Of a stretch of DNA of 48,622 nucleotides, positions 1,074 through 48,622 are shown in pieces. Position numbers and translations under genes: made by a program. Position 1 is the first letter of the stretch; each line of letters starts with the position of its first letter. The notes under the pieces are model-generated. The model did no database searches and was not told the DNA's origin. It worked only from the letters and a program-made list of their open reading frames with translations. The stretch is from contig MHOU01000010.1 in NCBI GenBank assembly GCA_001821935.1, positions 45,157-93,778 on the forward strand. Direction: 5' to 3'. This stretch comes from Candidatus Staskawiczbacteria bacterium RIFCSPHIGHO2_02_FULL_43_16 (GTDB lineage Bacteria > Patescibacteriota > Minisyncoccia > Minisyncoccales > Staskawiczbacteraceae).

Positions 1074-1787
1074 ATGAAACAGTGGGATTTTTTAAAGGGA
1101 AAATTTGAAGCGGGGCAGTTGGGCCATGCCTATATTTTTTCTGGACAAGATGTTGAAAGTTTAAAAAAGTTTGCCAATAATTTCGCTACATTTATCAACT
1201 GCAAATTTCCCGATGTATTTATAGTAAAATCTGAAAATAGTAAAAGTTCGTTAAAAGATGGCGAAGATAAGCAGGAAATTGATGTGGCGCTAATCCGCGA
1301 AACCCAGCATTTTTTAAGCTATAAATCGTATTACGGCGGATATAAAACGGTTATCATAGAAAACGCGGAGCGCATGAATCTGGAAGCCCAGAATTGTTTT
1401 TTAAAAAACTTAGAGGAACCAAAAGGAGATACGTTGATTATATTATTGTCTTCAAAGCCAGAAATGCTGCTGTCCACCATTTTTTCGCGTTGCCAACAGA
1501 TTAAATTCTTTAGCCCTGTAGTGAGAACTGCTTTACTACCGGGGTCGGACCAAGAGTTATTACAAGTAATTGAAGGTGATTTGGCACAAAAGTTTAAGTA
1601 TGCCAAAAATGCAAACCTGGAAGGCGGAGGTTTTGAAAATATCCTTTATGCACTGCAAAACTATGGGAGAAAAGATATTGGTAAATATTGGAAAGTGTTG
1701 AAATTAGCATTGGATTTGGAGCGCCAGGTAATGACTTACAATCTGAATAAAAAGTTAGCATTAGAAATAATATTATTAGAATTGTAG
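1074..1787 (+). CDS. holB: DNA polymerase III delta-prime subunit (AAA+ clamp-loader subunit)
   Basis: GHAYIFSG near the N-terminus and the NCFLKNLEEP motif (equivalent to the KxLEEPP box). Confidence 0.65.
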   Translation: MKQWDFLKGKFEAGQLGHAYIFSGQDVESLKKFANNFATFINCKFPDVFIVKSENSKSSLKDGEDKQEIDVALIRETQHFLSYKSYYGGYKTVIIENAERMNLEAQNCFLKNLEEPKGDTLIILLSSKPEMLLSTIFSRCQQIKFFSPVVRTALLPGSDQELLQVIEGDLAQKFKYAKNANLEGGGFENILYALQNYGRKDIGKYWKVLKLALDLERQVMTYNLNKKLALEIILLEL

Positions 1788-1790
1788 ATC

Positions 1791-2345
1791 ATGTTATATA
1801 AAGAATTCATAGAAAAAGTAAAACCTGAATTTGAAAAAGCCCTGGCGTTTTTGAGCGGGGAATTGGCAAAAATACGCACTTCGCATGCTTCGCCCGCTTT
1901 GGTTGAAGATGTGCAGGTTGATTACCTGGGCCAAAAGTATGCCCTAAAACAACTGGCGGCCATTTCCACCCCCCAAACTAATCAGATTGTCATCCAGCCC
2001 TGGGACGGTTCTTACATCCAGTCCATTGAGCAGGCCGTTTTAAAGTCGGGGCTTGGCATGTCCGCGGCGGTTGATGGCAGTTTAATTAGGTTGAATTTAC
2101 CCACATTAACCCAGGAATACCGCGACACCTTAATTAAACTGCTCAATGAAAAAGCGGAACAGGCCCGCCAGACCCTGCGCCACTGGCGTGAAGATGCGTG
2201 GAATAAAATTCAGGCGGCCCAAAAAGCCAAAGCCCTTACCGAAGACGATAAGTTTAAAGCAAAGGAAGATTTGCAAAAAATGATTGATGAATATAGCAAA
2301 AAAATAAAAGAATTAATTGAGCGTAAAGAAAAAGAAGTCGCCTAA
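1791..2345 (+). CDS. frr: Ribosome recycling factor
   Basis: 184 aa. VQVDYLGQKYALKQLAAISTPQTNQIVIQPWDGS is typical RRF. Confidence 0.9.
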   Translation: MLYKEFIEKVKPEFEKALAFLSGELAKIRTSHASPALVEDVQVDYLGQKYALKQLAAISTPQTNQIVIQPWDGSYIQSIEQAVLKSGLGMSAAVDGSLIRLNLPTLTQEYRDTLIKLLNEKAEQARQTLRHWREDAWNKIQAAQKAKALTEDDKFKAKEDLQKMIDEYSKKIKELIERKEKEVA

Positions 2346-2346
2346 T

Positions 2347-3435
2347 ATGATTGTAACGTTATTAATAGCATTTCTAAGCTTGATTGCCTTAATGATCATC
2401 CATGAATTTGGGCATTTTATCATTGCCAAAAAATTCGGGGTGAAAGTGGAGGAATTCGGCATCGGTTATCCGCCTCGCTTGTTTGGTAAGCAATTCGGTG
2501 AAACGATTTATTCAGTTAATTTAATTCCGCTGGGGGCGTTTGTACGTATTTATGGAGAAGAAGGGGGCGTGGATGATTACAGAAGTTTCGTGGGCCTTGC
2601 CATTTGGAAACGGATTTTAATTGTCTTGGGTGGCGTGCTGGCCTTTTGGATTGCCAGCGCCATTATTTTTTCTTTTGTTTTTTTTATCGGCGCCAGTGTG
2701 CCGGTGGGGGACCAGGATGTGGTTGGAGTAACCAGCACCCAGGTGTTGGTCATGGCGGTGCAGGCGGATTCCCCAGCTCAAAAAGCGGGTTTGAAACCCA
2801 AAGATGAAATAGTGGGTTTCAACAAAATTGCTGATTTCCAGGCCTTCATAGAAGCCAACAAGGGCGCGGCGGCCAGTTTGACGTTTAAGCGCGATGGCAA
2901 AGAAATGACCGTTAGTTTGACTCCACGTGTAACTTATCCGGAAGGCCAGGGCCCGACCGGCGTGGCTCTGGAACGGGTTGCCAATGTGATTGAAAAAGCT
3001 CCGTGGTATTTGGCGCCAGTAAAGGGGATTATGTTTACCGGTGAAATAACCTGGGCGGCATTAGCAGGTGTTTACGGTTTTTTTACCAGCATCTTTTCAG
3101 GCCAAGGAGTTCCGCCTGAAGCGCAATTGGCCGGCCCGGTGGGCATTACCATTTTTTTATCAAAGGCGGCTGATTACGGCGTTGGTTTCTTTTTGTATTT
3201 TATCGGATCACTTTCTGTTTTGCTGGCTATTTTTAATTTGTTTCCCATTCCGGCGCTGGACGGCGGCAAATTATTATTTTTGATCATTGAAAAAATCCAA
3301 AAAAAACCCGTGCCGGTAAATTGGGAACAGGGGCTGACTATTTTGTGTTTTGTATTGCTAATAACCATGTCAATATTCATCACCGTCAAATTTGATATCC
3401 CACGGGTGGTGGAATTGTGGCGCGCGGGCTTGTAA
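2347..3435 (+). CDS. rseP: Site-2 zinc metalloprotease RseP (M50 family, with PDZ domain)
   Basis: HEFGH zinc motif, a multi-pass membrane profile, and a central PDZ-like segment. The ATG at 2347 is preferred over the TTG at 2317, which overlaps frr. Confidence 0.8.
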   Translation: MIVTLLIAFLSLIALMIIHEFGHFIIAKKFGVKVEEFGIGYPPRLFGKQFGETIYSVNLIPLGAFVRIYGEEGGVDDYRSFVGLAIWKRILIVLGGVLAFWIASAIIFSFVFFIGASVPVGDQDVVGVTSTQVLVMAVQADSPAQKAGLKPKDEIVGFNKIADFQAFIEANKGAAASLTFKRDGKEMTVSLTPRVTYPEGQGPTGVALERVANVIEKAPWYLAPVKGIMFTGEITWAALAGVYGFFTSIFSGQGVPPEAQLAGPVGITIFLSKAADYGVGFFLYFIGSLSVLLAIFNLFPIPALDGGKLLFLIIEKIQKKPVPVNWEQGLTILCFVLLITMSIFITVKFDIPRVVELWRAGL

Positions 3436-3481
3436 ATTGTAAATTGTAAATTGTATATTGTATATTGTAATTTGTAATTTT
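3431..3481. repeat. Tandem heptamer array: (TTGTAAA)x3 (TTGTATA)x2 (TTGTAAT)x2
   Basis: Read directly from the rseP-proS intergenic sequence. It may contain overlapping -35/-10-like hexamers for proS. Confidence 0.8.
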
Positions 3482-3488
3482 CAAAGCT

Positions 3489-4742
3489 ATGTTGCAATCC
3501 AAACTTTTCTACAAAACAACTAAAAATAAAACTGCGGGGACTGAATCGGTTTCCCATGACCTTTTGGTGCGCGCCGGATATGTAGACCAGCTCATGGCGG
3601 GGGTGTACAGTTTCTTACCCCTGGGTTTTATGGTGCTAAAAAACATTGAAGCAATTATTAGAAAAAATATGGAAGAGATTGGCGGGCAAGAAATGTTAAT
3701 GCCAGTATTGCACCCAAAAGAAATTTGGCAAAAAACCGGCCGATGGGACGCTTTGAATGATATTTTATTTAAAATCAAAGGTAATGCTGATAAGGAGTAT
3801 GTGTTGGCTTCTACACATGAAGAATCTATGGTTCCATCCGCAAAAAAGATTATTTTTTCTTATCGCGATTTGCCTTTTTATCCATTTCATATCCAGCTAA
3901 AGTTTAGAGATGAATTACGGGTGAAATCAGGAATTTTGCGAACCAAAGAATTTATCATGAAGGATTTATATTCTTTTCATGTGAATCAAGCCGATTTGGA
4001 TAAGTATTATGAAGTTGCTGCAAAAGCTTATGAAAAAATATTCAAAGAAGCAGGGGTTGGAAAAATAACATACAGAACATTGGCAAGTGGTGGTAGTTTT
4101 TCCAAGTATTCAGACGAATTCCAAATGGTAACGGATATTGGCGAAGACTTAATTTATATTTGTAAAAAATGCGGTATTGCCATTAATAAAGAAATCAAGG
4201 CGGAAAATCCCGTTTGTCCAAAATGCCAGGGTGGCGAATTTGAAGAAAAGAAAGCGGTTGAAGTGGGAAATATTTTTAAACTTGGAACAAAATTCTCAAC
4301 ACCGTTTGACTTGAAGTTCACCGATAAAGATGGCCATGACAAACCTGTTTTGATGGGGTGTTATGGTATTGGCCTTGGCAGGTTGATGGGAGCCATTGTG
4401 GAAGCCAGTCATGACGACAAGGGAATTATTTGGCCTGCGGCTGTGGCGCCGTTTGCAGTTCATTTGATTCATTTGGGAGCTGACAAAAAAACCAAAACAT
4501 CAGCTCAAAAACTTTACAAGAGTTTACAGGAAAATAATATTAAAGTATTATGGGACGATAGGGAAAACAAGACCGCGGGGGAAAAATTCGGCGAAAGCGA
4601 TTTACTGGGAATTCCTTATAGGATTGTCATTTCAGAAAGAACTCTGGCCACAAATTCTGTGGAGATAAAAGAGCGCGGGAAGGAAAAGGCAAAATTGGTA
4701 AAGCTTAAAGATACCATAAAAAATGTTCGGCAACATCAGTAA
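3489..4742 (+). CDS. proS: Prolyl-tRNA synthetase, short form without the editing insertion
   Basis: N-terminal LLVRAGYV motif and class II aaRS core. 417 aa. Confidence 0.85.
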   Translation: MLQSKLFYKTTKNKTAGTESVSHDLLVRAGYVDQLMAGVYSFLPLGFMVLKNIEAIIRKNMEEIGGQEMLMPVLHPKEIWQKTGRWDALNDILFKIKGNADKEYVLASTHEESMVPSAKKIIFSYRDLPFYPFHIQLKFRDELRVKSGILRTKEFIMKDLYSFHVNQADLDKYYEVAAKAYEKIFKEAGVGKITYRTLASGGSFSKYSDEFQMVTDIGEDLIYICKKCGIAINKEIKAENPVCPKCQGGEFEEKKAVEVGNIFKLGTKFSTPFDLKFTDKDGHDKPVLMGCYGIGLGRLMGAIVEASHDDKGIIWPAAVAPFAVHLIHLGADKKTKTSAQKLYKSLQENNIKVLWDDRENKTAGEKFGESDLLGIPYRIVISERTLATNSVEIKERGKEKAKLVKLKDTIKNVRQHQ

Positions 4743-12390: not shown

Positions 12391-13507
12391 ATGGCAGGAC
12401 AGCAAGAACATATAGACAAGCTGGGTGAACAGGTCCAATATTTGGTGGACCGGCTTTGATGTTGATGTAAAAGAGAAAGAATTAAAGGCATTAGAACTGC
12501 AAACGCAGGCGGTAGATTTTTGGAATGATCACCAGGTAGCTGCCACGATAAGCCAGAAAATTGCAGAGTTAAAGGAGGAATTGGAGGTGGCCGAATCTTT
12601 GAAGAAAGAATTTGCGGATTTAAAAGAATTGAATGAACTGGGGCAGGTTGATGAAGCTGCGGTTGAAAAGTTACAGGTAAAAGTGGCCAGGGAAGAAAGC
12701 AAGGCATTTTTATCGGGGAAGTATGATAAAAATAACGCCATTTTAGAAATTTTCAGCGGAGCCGGCGGGGTGGACGCGCAAGATTGGGCCACCATGTTGC
12801 TTAGGATGTACCAGCGTTATTGTGTGATTAAAGGCTGGAAGGCGGAAATTCTGCACCAAAGTTTTGGTGAAGGTGGCGGGCCGGACGGGCGCATTGGCAC
12901 CAAAAATGTGACGCTGGCAATTCAAGGCAAGTTTGCCTATGGCATGCTAAAAAAAGAAGCGGGAGTACACCGCCTGGTGCGCCAATCACCGTTTTCTTCC
13001 CAGAAACTGCGCCATACTTCGTTTGCCTTGGTGGAAGTGATGCCGGAAATTGCTCAAAGTGCGGAACTTGAAATAAAACCGGAAGACTTGCGGGTGGACA
13101 CGTTTCGGGCTTCAGGGCCTGGCGGGCAGTATGTCAATAAAACCGAATCGGCCATTCGCTTGACCCATATTCCCACGGGCATTGCCGTGGCTTCCCAGAG
13201 CGAACGTTCCCAGGGCCGTAACCGCGAAAACGCCATGAAAATTTTATATGCCAAACTGCACGCGGCCCAGCAGCAAGAGCATAAAAAAGAACTAAAAGAA
13301 ATTAAGGCCGCCCAGAATACTGGGCGAGCCTCGCCAGCGGGCGGGGAGAATAGTGCTTCATGGGGAAACCAGATCCGCAGCTACGTGTTACATCCGTACA
13401 AAATGGTAAAAGATTTGCGCACCCAGTATGAAACCAGCCAAGCCGAAGATGTGCTGGAAGGAAACTTAGAAGAATTCATCCAAGCAGAAGTAAAATACCA
13501 TGATTAG
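12391..13507 (+). CDS. prfB: Peptide chain release factor 2 with programmed +1 frameshift: join(12391..12456,12458..13507)
   Basis: ORF0 is MAGQQEHIDKLGEQVQYLVDRL, ending at CTT TGA T. The +1 frame continues DVDVKEKELK... through SPF and GGQ (SGPGGQYVNKTESAIRLTHIPTG). A GGTGGA SD-like sequence lies upstream of the shift site. Confidence 0.85.
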
Positions 13508-44421: not shown

Positions 44422-44589
44422 ATGAATGCAATGTATTGGATTGTCTCTTTTCCCTTACTTTTGGTCTCGGCTTTTTTGGGATTATTTTGGGATGTGAAAG
44501 CGCCCAAAAAGAAACTTCGGGTAGCCGGTGGCGGCCGAAATCGCACCAAGGTAAAAAAACCTTCACCTTGGTCCAAGGATGAGTTATAA
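44422..44589 (+). CDS. Small membrane protein (55 aa) with a perfect SD
   Basis: AGGAGG 7 nt upstream of the ATG. One TM helix, then a basic tail. Below the ORF-track cutoff. Confidence 0.45.
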   Translation: MNAMYWIVSFPLLLVSAFLGLFWDVKAPKKKLRVAGGGRNRTKVKKPSPWSKDEL

Positions 44590-44699: not shown

Positions 44700-44721
44700 A
44701 TTACTGCGAATTAGAATATGT

Positions 44722-44767
44722 TAAAAAAATGAGCCGTTTCGCTTTTGCGAAACGGCTCATTTTTTTA
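44722..44767. terminator. Bidirectional intrinsic terminator directly after the prfA stop
   Basis: AAAAAAATGAGCCGTTTCGC-tttt-GCGAAACGGCTCATTTTTTT. Confidence 0.7.
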
Positions 44768-45562
44768 CTAGACCCTAGACCCTTCTTTTTTCTGCTCTTC
44801 CTCGAATTTCTTAAAGGCTTTGAAAATGGGCTCCATTTTGCCCTCTACAATATCTTCCAAATTATGCCAGGATTTTTCTATCCTATGATCGGTAATTCTA
44901 TTTTGCGGGTAATTATAGGTTCGGGTTTTTTCAGAACGCTTGGCCCAGCCAATTTGCTCCCGGCGCGCTTGGGTTAATTTTGATGAATCGGCTTCTTGCT
45001 GGGCTTTCAAAAGGCGCGCGCCCAAAAGCCCCATGGCATTTTCTTTATTTTGCAGCTGGCTTCGTTCTGTTTGACTGGTCACCACAAGACCGCTGGGGAT
45101 ATGGGTGATTCTAATGGCAGATTCAGTTTTATTTACGTGTTGGCCGCCAGCGCCTGAAGAGCGGTAAGTGTCTATTTTAAGATCAGAAGGATTTATGGTA
45201 ATGTCCATTTTGGTGGGTTTTTCTAAAACGGCAATGGTTACCGTTGAAGTGTGTACACGCCCTTGTTTTTCGGTGGCTGGAATACGCTGAACCCGGTGCA
45301 CCCCGCTTTCATATTGCATGGCTTCAAATGCGCCCGAGCCGGAAAGTTCAAACACGATTTCTTTATAACCCCCCACATCTGAAGTGTTGGAATCGATGAC
45401 TTTATTGCCCCACCCTTGGCTAGTGGCATATTTTGAATACATCCGGTATAAATCACGCACAAAAAGCCCAGCTTCGTCTCCACCGGTCCCCGCGCGAATT
45501 TCAATAATCACGGATTGCTTTCCGCCCCCACCCGTTTGTTGTTGATATTCTTGATAATCCAT
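44768..45562 (-). CDS. prfA: Peptide chain release factor 1 lacking N-terminal domain 1
   Basis: PAT tripeptide (QRIPATEKQGR), GGQ (SSGAGGQHVNKTESAIRITHIPSG), and EIRAGTGGDEAGLF matching E. coli RF1 around residue 107. An in-frame stop lies 5 codons upstream of the ATG, and only 77 bp separate it from rpmE. Confidence 0.8.
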   Translation of the reverse strand: MDYQEYQQQTGGGGKQSVIIEIRAGTGGDEAGLFVRDLYRMYSKYATSQGWGNKVIDSNTSDVGGYKEIVFELSGSGAFEAMQYESGVHRVQRIPATEKQGRVHTSTVTIAVLEKPTKMDITINPSDLKIDTYRSSGAGGQHVNKTESAIRITHIPSGLVVTSQTERSQLQNKENAMGLLGARLLKAQQEADSSKLTQARREQIGWAKRSEKTRTYNYPQNRITDHRIEKSWHNLEDIVEGKMEPIFKAFKKFEEEQKKEGSRV

Positions 45563-45639
45563 GGATAAAATATATCATAAAGACTTGATTTTGGAAAGAA
45601 AGCTTGCTATTATTGTAAATATTTCATATAATACTAACC

Positions 45640-45909
45640 ATGAAAGCAGACATCCACCCAATTTATTTTCCAAAAGCAGGTGTTAAGTGCGCCTGCGGTA
45701 ATTCGTTTACGGTTGGATCAACCAAAGAATTTATTGAAACTGAAATTTGCGCCCAGTGCCACCCTTTTTATACTAAGAAGGAAAAGGTGATGGATACCTT
45801 GGGCAGGGTACAGAAATTCAAAGACCGGGCCGCCAAGAAAATTGATAAGCCAAAGAAAGTAAAAAAGGTTAGGGAAGAAAAAGATAATAAGGCGACACTA
45901 ATCAACTAA
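45640..45909 (+). CDS. rpmE: 50S ribosomal protein L31
   Basis: [10 protein letters not shown]...CACGN...CAQCHPFYT with a basic C-terminal tail. Confidence 0.9.
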
Positions 45910-46610
45910 TGACATCCGAATCTACTAATAACGTAAAACTTAACGCGGATGATATGGCCAAAGCCGGCCTGAATTTTGGTCATACCGTTTCCAAGCTTCA
46001 TCCTAAAATGAAGGCTTTTGTACAGGGCGTTAAAAGCAATGTCCACATGATTGATATGGAAAAGTCCGCCAAAGAATTTGATTTGGCTTTGAAATTTATT
46101 TCCCAATTAGTTGCCGAAGGAAAAACATTGCTGTTTGTGGGAACAAAAATACAGGCAAAAAATTTAACCAAAGTAGCGGCGGTGGAAAGCGGTATGCCAT
46201 ATGTTACCGAACGGTGGCTGGGTGGAGCCTTTACTAATTTTGAAACCATTTCAAAACGGGTGGCTCACTTGAAAGACTTGGAAAGCAAAAAAGCCAAAGG
46301 TGAATTTGAGAAATATACCAAATATGAACAGATGATGCTTAATGAAGAAATCGCTTCGCTGACCACGAAATTTGAAGGCATCAAAAATATGGCAAAGTTG
46401 CCGGAAGCCGTTTTAATTTTAGATTTAAAAAAAGACATTGCCGTAGCGCGTGAAGCAAAACGCAAGGGTATTAAAATTGTGGGCATTGTAGACACCAATA
46501 TTGACCCGGCTCTGGCCGATTACGCCATTTATGCCAATGATGACGCCGTTTCTTCTATTGGATACGTGCTGGAAAAAATCAAAGAAACTATATTAAGTGC
46601 GAAACCCTAA
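45909..46610 (+). CDS. rpsB: 30S ribosomal protein S2
   Basis: GHTVSKLHPKMKAFV...LFVGTK. Confidence 0.9.
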   Translation: MTSESTNNVKLNADDMAKAGLNFGHTVSKLHPKMKAFVQGVKSNVHMIDMEKSAKEFDLALKFISQLVAEGKTLLFVGTKIQAKNLTKVAAVESGMPYVTERWLGGAFTNFETISKRVAHLKDLESKKAKGEFEKYTKYEQMMLNEEIASLTTKFEGIKNMAKLPEAVLILDLKKDIAVAREAKRKGIKIVGIVDTNIDPALADYAIYANDDAVSSIGYVLEKIKETILSAKP

Positions 46611-46715: not shown

Positions 46716-47165
46716 ATGATTAATATCGAAGATATTAAGAGATTGAGAGATGAAACCGGTGCCTCGCCGGTGAAAATTAAAAAGGCCATGGAAGAGTCTG
46801 GGGAAGATGTTCAAAAAGCCAAGGAATTGTTGAAAAGCTGGGGAGCGGTAAAAGCCGGTGAAAAAGGAGGGCGCGAAACCCATGACGGTGTGATTGATTT
46901 TTATATCCATCCTAATGCCAAGTCCGGCGTACTACTGGATATCCGTTGTGAAACTGATTTTGTGGCAAAAAACCCCGATTTTAAAAGCCTGGCTCACGAA
47001 ATTTGCCTGCACATTGCCGCCATGCAGCCTGAAAATGTTGAAGCCTTGCTGGCGCAATCCTGGGTAAAAGACGATGCCAAAACCATTAAAAGTTTGATTG
47101 AAGAAACAGTAGCTAAAATAGGGGAGAATATTACTGTGAAACAGTTTGCACGCTTTGCGATATAA
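46716..47165 (+). CDS. tsf: Elongation factor Ts, short form
   Basis: 149 aa. IKRLRDETGASPVKIKKAMEESGEDVQKAKELL N-terminal UBA-like domain. Confidence 0.85.
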   Translation: MINIEDIKRLRDETGASPVKIKKAMEESGEDVQKAKELLKSWGAVKAGEKGGRETHDGVIDFYIHPNAKSGVLLDIRCETDFVAKNPDFKSLAHEICLHIAAMQPENVEALLAQSWVKDDAKTIKSLIEETVAKIGENITVKQFARFAI

Positions 47166-47168
47166 TCT

Positions 47169-47480
47169 ATGCTTACACTCATCATATCCGGTATTTTTTT
47201 TATTTCAGTTTTGGGAGTTGCATTCATTTTGTTTAGAAAAATTCCGGTATTGGTGCAGCTACCCCAAAACGGTCATCATGGAATTAAAAAGCCGCAGCTG
47301 ATTGCCAACATTGAAAAAACACTGAAAGCCCACCATTTCCACTTTTTTGAAAAACAGATGCTGCTGCAAAAATTATTGAGTAAATCTCGGATTTTGATAT
47401 TGAAAGCGGAGCGGTGGATTGACGTGGCTTTACGCGGAATACGCAAAAAGGCACAAGAGTTGGATGAGAAGAAAAAGTAG
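47169..47480 (+). CDS. Hypothetical membrane protein
   Basis: N-terminal TM helix and a basic C-terminus. Confidence 0.4.
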   Translation: MLTLIISGIFFISVLGVAFILFRKIPVLVQLPQNGHHGIKKPQLIANIEKTLKAHHFHFFEKQMLLQKLLSKSRILILKAERWIDVALRGIRKKAQELDEKKK

Positions 47481-47494
47481 ATTACGCGGCCCAC

Positions 47495-47566
47495 GCCGAT
47501 GTAGCTCAACAGCAGAGCAACACTTTTGTAAAGTGAAGGTTGTGGGTGCAACTCCCTCCATCGGCT
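47495..47566 (+). tRNA. Atypical tRNA-like gene (anticodon UGU, Thr) lacking D-loop GG and the T-loop TTC
   Basis: Perfect 7-bp acceptor stem GCCGATG/CATCGGC, D stem GCTC/GAGC, anticodon loop TTTGTAA. But the D-loop is AACAGCA, the T-loop is TGCAACT, and the anticodon stem has one mismatch. Confidence 0.5.
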
Positions 47567-47673
47567 CAAAGGTATTGACAACGGATTTATTTAGACTAGA
47601 ATACAGTTATATATTATTAACAATTAAACTTGCAAAATAATATTTTATAAAACTTAGAAGTTTTTAAAAATAT

Positions 47674-47773: not shown

Positions 47774-48157
47774 GCCATCTTGAAATGAGGGAGGTAAGTA
47801 GCAAGTGAAAACCAAGCACTCATTTTTGTACATTAAGCCAGGGGGTGGATTGCGTGTCGTTGGCACGAGCGGCGGCACCTTTTTCGGTTGCGCCTAGGGT
47901 CAGGGTAACGGGAAAAGAACCAGTAATAATCGTGACTGGACAGTTCACCTCTTGTAATTTTCAGGGAAAAAGGAATGGGCTGGCCAGCCTATTGGCGCTC
48001 CGGGTTCAGTTTCGTTAACTGACGACGAGGTCTTCCACGCGGCCCATTTCCTCTTTTTTCAATGTGTCCAAAAATGAGTGCTCGGTAAAGTAACTTGTTT
48101 AAAATTAGTTTTTGAAAGTTGTTTCGAATAAGCTTAATACGTGCTTAACGTATATAT

Positions 48158-48622
48158 TATTTGAGAGTTTGATCCTAGCTCAGGGTGAACGCTGGAAATG
48201 TGGATACCGGCATGCAAGTCAAGGGGCCCAGGGATGTAGACTCTGAACGCGAATCTAAATTGAGAAGCGAAAAAATGTGATAATTTCAATGTTTCTTGCG
48301 ACGAAATGTAGTGACTACTACATTGAGGAGTAAAAACGAAGAAATTAGCCATTTTTTCGCTTCCCTTCGGGCTTTCATATTTTGATTATCTTCTGCGTCT
48401 TCGGAGCTTAACGATGCCTACAGCATCGCTTCGCTCCTCAGTTCTTGAATATAATCAAAATATGGAAGCTCAATTGATTCTGTTCAGAGTCTACATCCTT
48501 AAGGCACCGGCGAACGGCTTAGTAACACGTGGATACATACCGCAAAGTGGAGCACAGCTCGTCGAAAGACGGGGTAATTCTCCATAATCCCGCAAGGGTA
48601 AACACGCAAGTGGCTTTGTGAA
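48158..48622 (+). rRNA. rrs: 16S rRNA, 5' portion (runs off the window end), with a ~230-nt insertion in helix 6 (48252..48480)
   Basis: GAGAGTTTGATCCTAGCTCAGGGTGAACGCTGG...CATGCAAGTC...GGCGAACGGCTTAGTAACACGTGG match conserved 16S 5' blocks. The extended helix GGGATGTAGACTCTGAACG/TGTTCAGAGTCTACATCC encloses the inserted sequence. Confidence 0.9.

Follow-up and report, generated by a model that had tools for sequence, protein, structure and literature searches.

Can a bacterium dispense with the N-terminal domain of release factor 1 (RF1) and still use UAG as a stop codon? This question is raised by the prfA gene of Candidatus Staskawiczbacteria, an ultra-small groundwater bacterium, in which the RF1 reading frame seems to begin only where domain 2 of other RF1s begins. 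We analyzed a 48.6-kb stretch of a contig of this organism, hereafter called the window, in which an earlier note had described prfA as an RF1 without domain 1. The lost part would correspond to the N-terminal α-helical domain 1, which is the GTPase-interacting or L11-stalk domain of the factor. The contacts of this domain are with the L11 stalk base and the GTPase-associated centre rather than with L7/L12 itself. For comparison we assembled 80 loci from GTDB species representatives and determined how far the AGxGGxE motif of RF1 lies from the in-frame stop or start that precedes it. All sequences compared originate from metagenome-assembled genomes.

Table 1. Features of the window considered in this study.
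Feature	Coordinates	Strand	Basis
prfB (RF2), full length including domain 1, 371 aa with the programmed +1 frameshift	12391..13507	+	TIGR00020
prfB +1 frameshift site CTT TGA, preceded by SD-like GGTGGA	12454..12459	+	read from sequence
Intrinsic terminator hairpin, bidirectional, 13-bp G+C-rich core, flanking A/U runs	44730..44759	-	fold
prfA, RF1 of 264 aa, domains 2, 3 and 4 only, without domain 1	44768..45562	-	ORF, profile and PDB matches
GGQ catalytic motif, residues 139-141	45140..45148	-	read from sequence
PAT tripeptide 'anticodon', residues 95-97, inside the QRIPATEKQGRVHTST decoding loop	45272..45280	-	read from sequence
prfA-rpmE divergent spacer, 77 bp	45563..45639	.	consensus scan
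TG-extended -10 TATATT, ends 6 nt before prfA ATG	45574..45569	-	consensus scan
In-frame TGA, fifth codon upstream of prfA ATG, closes the frame	45575..45577	-	read from sequence
-35-like TTTCCA	45597..45592	-	consensus scan
TTGCTA-17-TATAAT, ends 7 nt before rpmE ATG	within spacer	+	consensus scan
rpmE (L31), divergent from prfA here	45640..45909	+	ORF list, locus comparison

Domain architecture and conservation of the short RF1

The translation of prfA opens with MDYQEYQQQTGGGGKQSVIIEIRAGTGGDEAG and starts at the equivalent of E. coli RF1 residue ~94, and RF1 profiles match it only from position ~103 on. Both Pfam domains of the family are present (PCRF, PF03462, 8.9e-43; RF-1, PF00472, 2.3e-42), with the PCRF model matched only over positions 99–194 of 194 and the RF-1 (GGQ) model matched in full. 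The NCBIfam RF1 models NF001859 and TIGR00019 gave 377.7 bits over profile positions 103–345 of 347 and 368.8 bits from position 111 of 361, respectively. These scores fall just below the curated RF1 equivalog cutoffs of 400 and 423 because ~100 N-terminal profile positions are missing. Among the models of the wider family RF1 nonetheless matches best, the others giving 228 bits (RF2), 106 bits (PrfH) and 47 bits (ArfB). A sequence search of the PDB aligned residues 16–258 with residues 105–347 of T. thermophilus RF1 and 109–343 of E. coli RF1 at ~50% identity. The description of the protein as an RF1 without domain 1 was thus borne out by Pfam, NCBIfam and PDB matches that start at ~103–109, and because domain 1 is absent we regard it as an RF1 orthologue of variant architecture and not as a canonical family member.

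The PAT and GGQ motifs, which the earlier note had likewise reported, are both intact. Across 40 aligned clade members P95 and T97 of the PxT motif are invariant, as are ~110 of the 264 positions overall, and GGQ shows no variation in clade alignment A1. The stretches RAGTGGDEA, QRIPxTEKQGRxHTST and GGQ and the switch-loop region are kept in the clade alignments. The tip of helix α5, the PxT loop and the GGQ and switch-loop regions are conserved whether the relatives are truncated or full length. When the window gene is compared pairwise with its counterparts in clade members, dN/dS comes to 0.04–0.085, at dS values near or past saturation. As these comparisons indicate, prfA is under strong purifying selection. 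In one relative, locus L028, GGR replaces GGQ, so that not all truncated copies are necessarily active.

The AF2 model of the short RF1 (pLDDT 79.6, pTM 0.75) has residues 1–13 disordered, with pLDDT below 50, and its predicted fold resembles free or compact RF1 as seen in 1rq0, 2b3t_B, 1zbt and 6orl_A (TM 0.79–0.81, rmsd 2.6–3.4 Å). Compared with canonical RF1 of T. thermophilus (4V63), E. coli (2B3T) and T. maritima (1RQ0), the short protein is ~50% identical over domains 2–4 and shares the PxT loop, the helix α5 tip, the GGQ domain, the switch-loop region and the compact fold. It differs in that the helical domain 1 of the canonical factor is missing as a whole, a loss of ~95–105 residues.

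Distribution of truncated RF1 among relatives

The earlier note had left it to a comparison with relatives to show whether the truncation is lineage-wide, and we find it throughout the Staskawiczbacteria clade. All of the best 120 database cluster representatives (120/120) are 240–307 aa long; they span 71–100% identity and stem from many independent samples. A protein identical to that of the window is found on 7 contigs and in several databases, recorded as peptide chain release factor 1 of Staskawiczbacteria; the NCBI label of some relatives is 'PCRF domain-containing protein' only. In the window and in loci L001–L012, all of them Staskawiczbacteria-like, 13–49 residues precede the AGxGGxE motif. 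Ten further Parcubacteria loci have 9–20 residues before the motif (two labelled Nealsonbacteria, one the complete genome CP179888.1). Full-length RF1 is encoded at 13 other Patescibacteria loci (55–65% identity), with ~73–126 residues before the motif and mostly at least 89, and all non-CPR loci with a locatable motif fall in the same range of ~73–126 residues, most having at least 89. An exhaustive search returned 50%-identity representatives that are mostly ~355 aa long and match from residue ~105–115. A CPR-wide trait is ruled out by these ~355-aa matches and by the 13 full-length Patescibacteria loci. The truncation is thus confined to particular clades of Parcubacteria and is not shared by CPR at large.

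Relatives with a full-length RF1 at the same locus, which the earlier note had named as evidence that would speak against its reading, were found only among more distant Patescibacteria (57–65% identity). As these carry full-length RF1 at the same rpmE–prfA locus, the truncation is derived and is not an assembly error.

Two further candidates were rejected. Short representatives from other phyla (P0141, P0151, P0155, P0168 and others) were considered as natural truncations; they start at the ...PKDPNDEKN linker, several carry junk C-termini, and they were judged to be end-cut or frameshifted gene calls. Compensation by the switch loop was considered as well, where GWAKR is enriched in truncated forms, yet L021 and L023, which are full length, have it too, and GxAKR is found generally among Patescibacteria.

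Orthology of the short gene and origin of the deletion

At the 13 Patescibacteria loci with full-length RF1 the gene order is rpsB(-) / rpmE(+) → prfA(+) / p460(-), and in most Patescibacteria loci 7–73 nt separate the end of rpmE from full-length prfA. The same rpsB/rpmE/prfA/p460 order is found at the ten truncated loci outside Staskawiczbacteria, where the short prfA directly follows rpmE. In Staskawiczbacteria, the window among them, the orientation of rpmE is reversed throughout the clade, so that it is co-directional with rpsB–tsf and divergent from prfA. The window prfA lies between rpmE and the p460 gene, which encodes a 460-aa coiled-coil protein, as does full-length prfA at the 13 Patescibacteria loci. 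Since this rpmE–prfA–p460 position is common to the short and the full-length forms, the short gene is the positional orthologue of ordinary prfA, and it occupies the same chromosomal position as the canonical RF1 gene of related Patescibacteria.

The N-termini of truncated forms retain different remnants. P0122 retains MADIETIKKEYK and L077 retains MPDIKTIK, both of which match the start of full-length Patescibacteria RF1, M.DL..IK.EY, and only 2–3 N-terminal residues are left in L015, L031 and L032. The remnants have the look of internal deletions that kept the frame but differed in their endpoints. We built neighbor-joining (NJ) bootstrap trees from the flanking markers S2, p460 and L31 (712 columns) and from the RF1 core. 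In neither tree did the truncated forms appear as a single clade (0/100 bootstraps), and the trees need 5–7 state changes. The Staskawiczbacteria clade (window and L001–L012) has 100% support, and truncated L019 is sister to full-length L023 in 98/100 replicates. A single ancestral loss is contradicted by these bootstraps, and together with the differing deletion endpoints the trees, which are distance trees from few markers, make several independent losses of RF1 domain 1 likely. The recurrence of the loss in other lineages goes beyond what the earlier note had described, as does the full-length RF2 encoded in the same window.

RF2 retains domain 1 and TAG remains in use

A tblastn search found prfB, and prfA and prfB are the only RF-family genes in the 48.6-kb window. 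The first frame of prfB is a 22-codon ORF that starts at 12391 and ends at CTT TGA. The joined-frame RF2 scores 416.2 bits with TIGR00020 (cutoff 370) over positions 2–352 of 353, and it carries the SPF motif. RF2 homologues in the clade are 291–374 aa long. For the RF1/RF2 pairs P0023/P0283, P0056/P0292 and P0022/P0332, the two partners have the same recorded length of the longest contig (403,851, 661,750 and 174,430 bp, respectively). As RF2 keeps domain 1 in the window and in relatives, the loss is specific to RF1, and given that RF2 keeps its autoregulatory frameshift as well, domain 1 is dispensable specifically for RF1. Domain-1 deletion experiments in E. coli show an asymmetry between RF1 and RF2 similar to that of the window, with its short RF1 and full RF2.

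TAG is readable by RF1 only. It is the stop of 13 of the 46 window ORFs (28%), prfA and prfB among them, and of 30.5% of 164 ORFs across clade loci, compared with 14% in relatives with full-length RF1. Avoidance of UAG in the clade is contradicted by this usage, which is no lower than in the full-length relatives. With TAG used as a stop to this extent in the window and in the clade, RF1 is needed.

Expression signals

The 77-bp distance to the divergent rpmE gene given in the earlier note proved correct, and no Shine-Dalgarno sequence was found on either side of this spacer. Ten other Staskawiczbacteria loci carry an extended -10 element (TGnTAnAnT-like) 6–11 nt 5' of the prfA ATG, also without a Shine-Dalgarno sequence. 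The conservation of this box just 5' of the ATG at 11 loci fixes the start codon. The consensus matches suggest a putative promoter that would give rise to a leaderless prfA mRNA. On the downstream side the terminator begins 8 nt past the prfA TAG stop, and the fold of 44715–44772(-) has an energy of -31.9 kcal/mol (z = -12), with 0/200 shuffles as good. We propose that prfA is monocistronic, with a probably leaderless mRNA made from the extended -10 promoter 6 nt 5' of the ATG and ended by the strong hairpin.

Proposed function of the short RF1

We consider it quite probable that the short protein is the orthologous, working RF1 of this organism, from which an ancestral deletion removed domain 1 and left domains 2/4, the superdomain that recognizes the stop codon, and domain 3, the peptidyl hydrolase with GGQ. 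Its intact motifs, the presence of a full-length RF2 and the termination of 28% of the window ORFs by TAG make it very probably a working RF1. The short RF1 would enter the A site and read UAA and UAG with its PxT loop and the tip of helix α5. It would then shift from a compact to an extended form and bring GGQ into the peptidyl-transferase centre, in the manner of canonical RF1. The short protein would make no contact with the L11 stalk base and would not be recyclable by RF3, and hence would have to leave the ribosome spontaneously. This account of a working RF1 in a small genome assumes that RF3 is absent from the lineage. We infer the activity, the independence of RF3 and L11 and the leaderless expression of the short RF1 from its sequence and context.

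A precedent comes from engineered E. coli RF1. As related in PMC1586002, E. coli RF1 without its N-terminal domain carries out codon-specific release in vitro and works in vivo, and by the same account it neither stimulates RF3 nor gets recycled by RF3 (Mora et al. 2003). The domains 2–4 architecture of this construct, as it is described there, is that of the short RF1, and by analogy the short RF1 should keep codon-specific release and should be unable to engage RF3. The two differ in that the engineered factor is a laboratory construct in an RF3-bearing host, whereas the short RF1 is natural, clade-wide, selected and recurrent and is known here from sequence. A reviewer comment by W. Tate states that RF1 is inactive on ribosomes without L11 (PMC1586002). 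If this L11 dependence of RF1 runs via domain 1, the short RF1 might be impaired; the E. coli truncation result argues otherwise.

RF3 is missing in 72 of 191 surveyed genomes, most small genomes included (PMC1780047; see also PMC4342817), and weaker binding of class-I release factors has been proposed as a compensation that could offset its absence (PMC1780047; Margus et al. 2007). One may ask whether the loss of domain 1 was adaptive and convergent and not a neutral erosion, with ultra-small, presumably RF3-less Parcubacteria shedding domain 1 so that RF1 lets go of the ribosome after hydrolysis and recycles without a GTPase. We regard this as doubtful. If it were true, the fact that RF2 strictly keeps both domain 1 and the frameshift site would point to an essential, RF3-independent role of RF2 domain 1.

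The N-terminal peptide

In part of the clade the short RF1 begins with D[FY]SKFT[AP]EDWKNY followed by a Gly/Ser-rich linker. One could suppose that this peptide is a novel motif for binding the ribosome or a partner and has assumed some of the role of domain 1, as the 13-residue motif is strongly kept in L006–L012 and in many database members while the linker that follows varies freely. The conserved peptide of this part of the clade, DFSKFTAEDWKNY, could be a new minimal tether in place of domain 1. The motif is shrunk to MDYQEYQ in the window and L001, though, and it is absent from L002–L005 and from every truncated form outside Staskawiczbacteria. Being reduced or missing in so many truncated forms, it is not required. 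It is also predicted to be disordered (pLDDT below 50) and may be a mere remnant of the original M.DL..IK.EY N-terminus. We therefore judge a functional replacement of domain 1 by this peptide to be improbable.

Comparison with PrfH and ArfB

Among natural bacterial homologues of class-I RFs, only PrfH had been described as having a codon-recognition domain but no domain 1 (PMC1586002, PMC6514570). As the known natural homologues of this architecture are accessory factors (PMC1586002, PMC6514570), the short protein might be a specialised paralogue, that is, a rescue or quality-control factor of the PrfH/ArfB kind, with a canonical RF1 encoded elsewhere. The decoding motifs of PrfH are altered, and its gene is always located directly downstream of an rtcB-like gene; in contrast, the short RF1 retains PxT and all RF1 decoding residues, and its neighbours are the divergent rpmE upstream and the terminator and then the p460 gene downstream, with no rtcB-like gene adjacent. 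The PrfH model TIGR03072 gives 105.9 bits, below its cutoff of 166.65, so that the comparison is 378 bits for RF1 versus 106 for PrfH (cutoff 167). The identification as PrfH is thus ruled out by the sub-cutoff score, the RF1 motifs, the absence of an rtcB neighbour and the orthologous prfA position. The lack of domain 1 is common to PrfH and the short RF1 but arose independently in the latter. ArfB (YaeJ) and mitochondrial ICT1 have the GGQ domain in common with the short RF1, the ArfB match amounting to 46.6 bits over 34 residues (120–153). Unlike the short RF1, which has the whole C-terminal half of PCRF and complete domains 2 and 4, ArfB is without codon-recognition domains, and its basic C-terminal tail has no counterpart in the short RF1. 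Further evidence against a paralogue comes from the ancestral prfA position of the gene, from rpmE to p460, from the RF1-core tree, in which the short RF1 joins the full-length Patescibacteria RF1s and does not stand apart as a separate paralogue, and from the window, where prfA and prfB are the two RF-family genes. Taken together, these data make an accessory role very unlikely.

The search for a separate domain 1

The earlier note had argued that the locus has no room for domain 1. We agree: the in-frame stop that it placed five codons upstream is a TGA at the position given in Table 1, and beyond it the 77-bp spacer leads directly into rpmE. A sense reading of UGA was considered and rejected, as read-through of this TGA yields only antisense rpmE without RF similarity; TGA terminates 5 of the 46 window ORFs and also serves as the prfB frameshift stop.

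Domain 1 might instead be made as a separate polypeptide that joins the short RF1 on the ribosome. A tblastn search of the window with E. coli RF1 residues 1–105 as an approximate query gave nothing (best E=1.7). We also made a domain-1 HMM from 16 full-length relatives, with which positive-control loci score 1e-29 to 1e-38. It found no match in the six-frame translation of the 48.6-kb window (best E=2.3) and none at 22 truncated loci, each taken together with at most 10 kb of flanking sequence per side as the contig allowed (best E=0.77). The upstream segment in another frame that the earlier note had named as possible counter-evidence was accordingly found neither by tblastn nor by the HMM. 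When a profile of 13 Patescibacteria domain-1 sequences was run against the database, a search too insensitive to speak for absence, it gave only 6 matches: four are ordinary RF1 genes cut off at the ends of short contigs, one is unclassified and one is L081. None of these six low-sensitivity matches is attributable to Staskawiczbacteria.

On L081, an unrelated contig, a TAA in frame interrupts RF1 precisely between domains 1 and 2, so that a 111-aa domain-1 ORF is directly followed by the rest of RF1. The split resembles two compensating indels and is probably an error or a pseudogene. L081 alone shows that such a split can arise; given the blank domain-1 HMM in the window and the 22 truncated loci, we find a split RF1 hardly credible. 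An artefact or pseudogene, be it an assembly frameshift, a chimeric join at rpmE, a wrong start or a decaying prfA, might be suspected from the metagenome assembly and the broken RF1 of the unrelated L081, but it is effectively refuted by the identical protein on 7 contigs and in several databases, the uniformly short best 120 cluster representatives, the absence of domain-1-like sequence in any frame, a dN/dS of 0.04–0.08 and the promoter box kept directly 5' of the ATG at 11 loci.

Implications

In our classification the short RF1 is a known factor in a new architectural variant. A literature search confined to papers readable without subscription yielded no account of a housekeeping RF1 that lacks domain 1, be it in CPR or in other organisms; the related work that it did turn up concerns PrfH. 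The variant has consequences for annotation: pipelines under-call short RF1 genes, and screens for genome completeness or codon reassignment that use the RF1 equivalog cutoff could wrongly call RF1 absent in short-RF1 lineages.

For the biology of the group, the finding means that the housekeeping RF1 of a whole clade is without domain 1, apparently through one of several independent deletions in Parcubacteria, and that the RF2 of the same genomes keeps it. The short RF1 parallels in nature what the truncation experiments did in E. coli, and as a compact RF1 it lends itself to structural and kinetic studies. It can also serve in comparative work on the roles of domain 1 beyond RF3 recycling, on the difference between RF1 and RF2 in their need for this domain, and on termination in bacteria that lack RF3.

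Sequence variation among RF1 forms

Within one subclade of the short RF1s (loci L006-L012 of the Staskawiczbacteria-like comparison set; database homologues P0013, P0019, P0022 and P0027, among others) the N-terminus carries the conserved motif D[FY]SKFT[AP]EDWKNY, followed by a variable linker rich in Gly, Ser and Glu. This motif may be what is left of the original N-terminus, or it may be a short linear motif that arose anew. The start of the window RF1, MDYQEYQ, looks like a reduced version of it.

A second difference lies in the switch-loop region (residues 203-212 of the window RF1), which we compared across all Patescibacteria loci of the set. These RF1s read QIG[WQKG]AKR[SA]EK, as opposed to QIGSGDRSEK in other bacteria. 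Among the truncated forms, 17 of 23 have Trp in the switch loop, compared with only 2 of 13 full-length forms, an enrichment that could reflect phylogeny or compensation. The truncated RF1 encoded at locus L028 (JASEJS010000039.1, ORF 2824..3579) has GPGGRYRDHRE where GPGGQYVNKRE is expected, changing GGQ to GGR; the copy may be inactive, or the change may stem from an error in sequencing.

A split RF1 and the rpmE inversion

At locus L081 (JGI 3300025736, Ga0207997_1026511, 1305..2306) an in-frame TAA splits RF1 exactly at the boundary of domains 1 and 2 (GPKSI, stop, LKIRAGAGG), and gene callers return a 111-aa domain-1 ORF and a second ORF downstream. This split form is known from a single contig, in which the local sequence has the appearance of two compensating 1-nt indels.

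In the Staskawiczbacteria clade rpmE, the L31 gene, is inverted and runs in the same direction as rpsB-tsf (window 45640..46610, compared with loci L013-L044), whereas in all other Patescibacteria loci compared it lies directly 5' of prfA. The breakpoint of the inversion is the place where domain 1 of RF1 would have stood.

RF2 and other genes in the window

Once its two frames are joined, the RF2 gene encodes a full-length protein of 371 aa that includes domain 1; ftsE and ftsX lie directly 3' of it. The 835-aa protein has no NCBIfam match, and its vault domains are unusual in a bacterium. The 103-aa ORF has no family match. At the window end, the extent of the 16S rRNA gene relative to its model implies an insertion of ~240 nt.

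Coordinates and properties of additional features in the window
Feature	Position	Strand	Remarks
prfB (RF2)	12391..13507	+	programmed +1 frameshift joins two frames
prfB frameshift site CTT TGA	12454..12459	+	classical +1 type; preceded by SD-like GGTGGA
835-aa vault-domain protein	15590..18097	+	Major Vault Protein shoulder PF11978, 1e-18; Vault_3 repeat PF17795, 1e-6
55-aa ORF between the 460-aa coiled-coil gene and the shared bidirectional terminator	44422..44589	+	hydrophobic N-terminus, basic C-terminus
EF-Ts (tsf)	46716..47165	+	only 149 aa; matches positions 4-144 of 293-position tsf model
103-aa ORF after EF-Ts gene	47169..47480	+	hydrophobic N-terminus
tRNA-Thr	47495..47567		upstream of 16S rRNA gene
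16S rRNA gene, 5' end	48157..48622	+	466 nt cover only model positions 1-226

Expression signals

The prfA upstream regions compared were those of the window (divergent spacer 45563..45639) and of loci L001-L012, the Staskawiczbacteria-like loci with truncated RF1. For both prfA and rpmE in the window spacer, the -10 box ends 6-7 nt 5' of the ATG. A Shine-Dalgarno sequence was found at none of the 14 window gene starts inspected. Most genes of this organism may be expressed from leaderless mRNAs or independently of an SD sequence.
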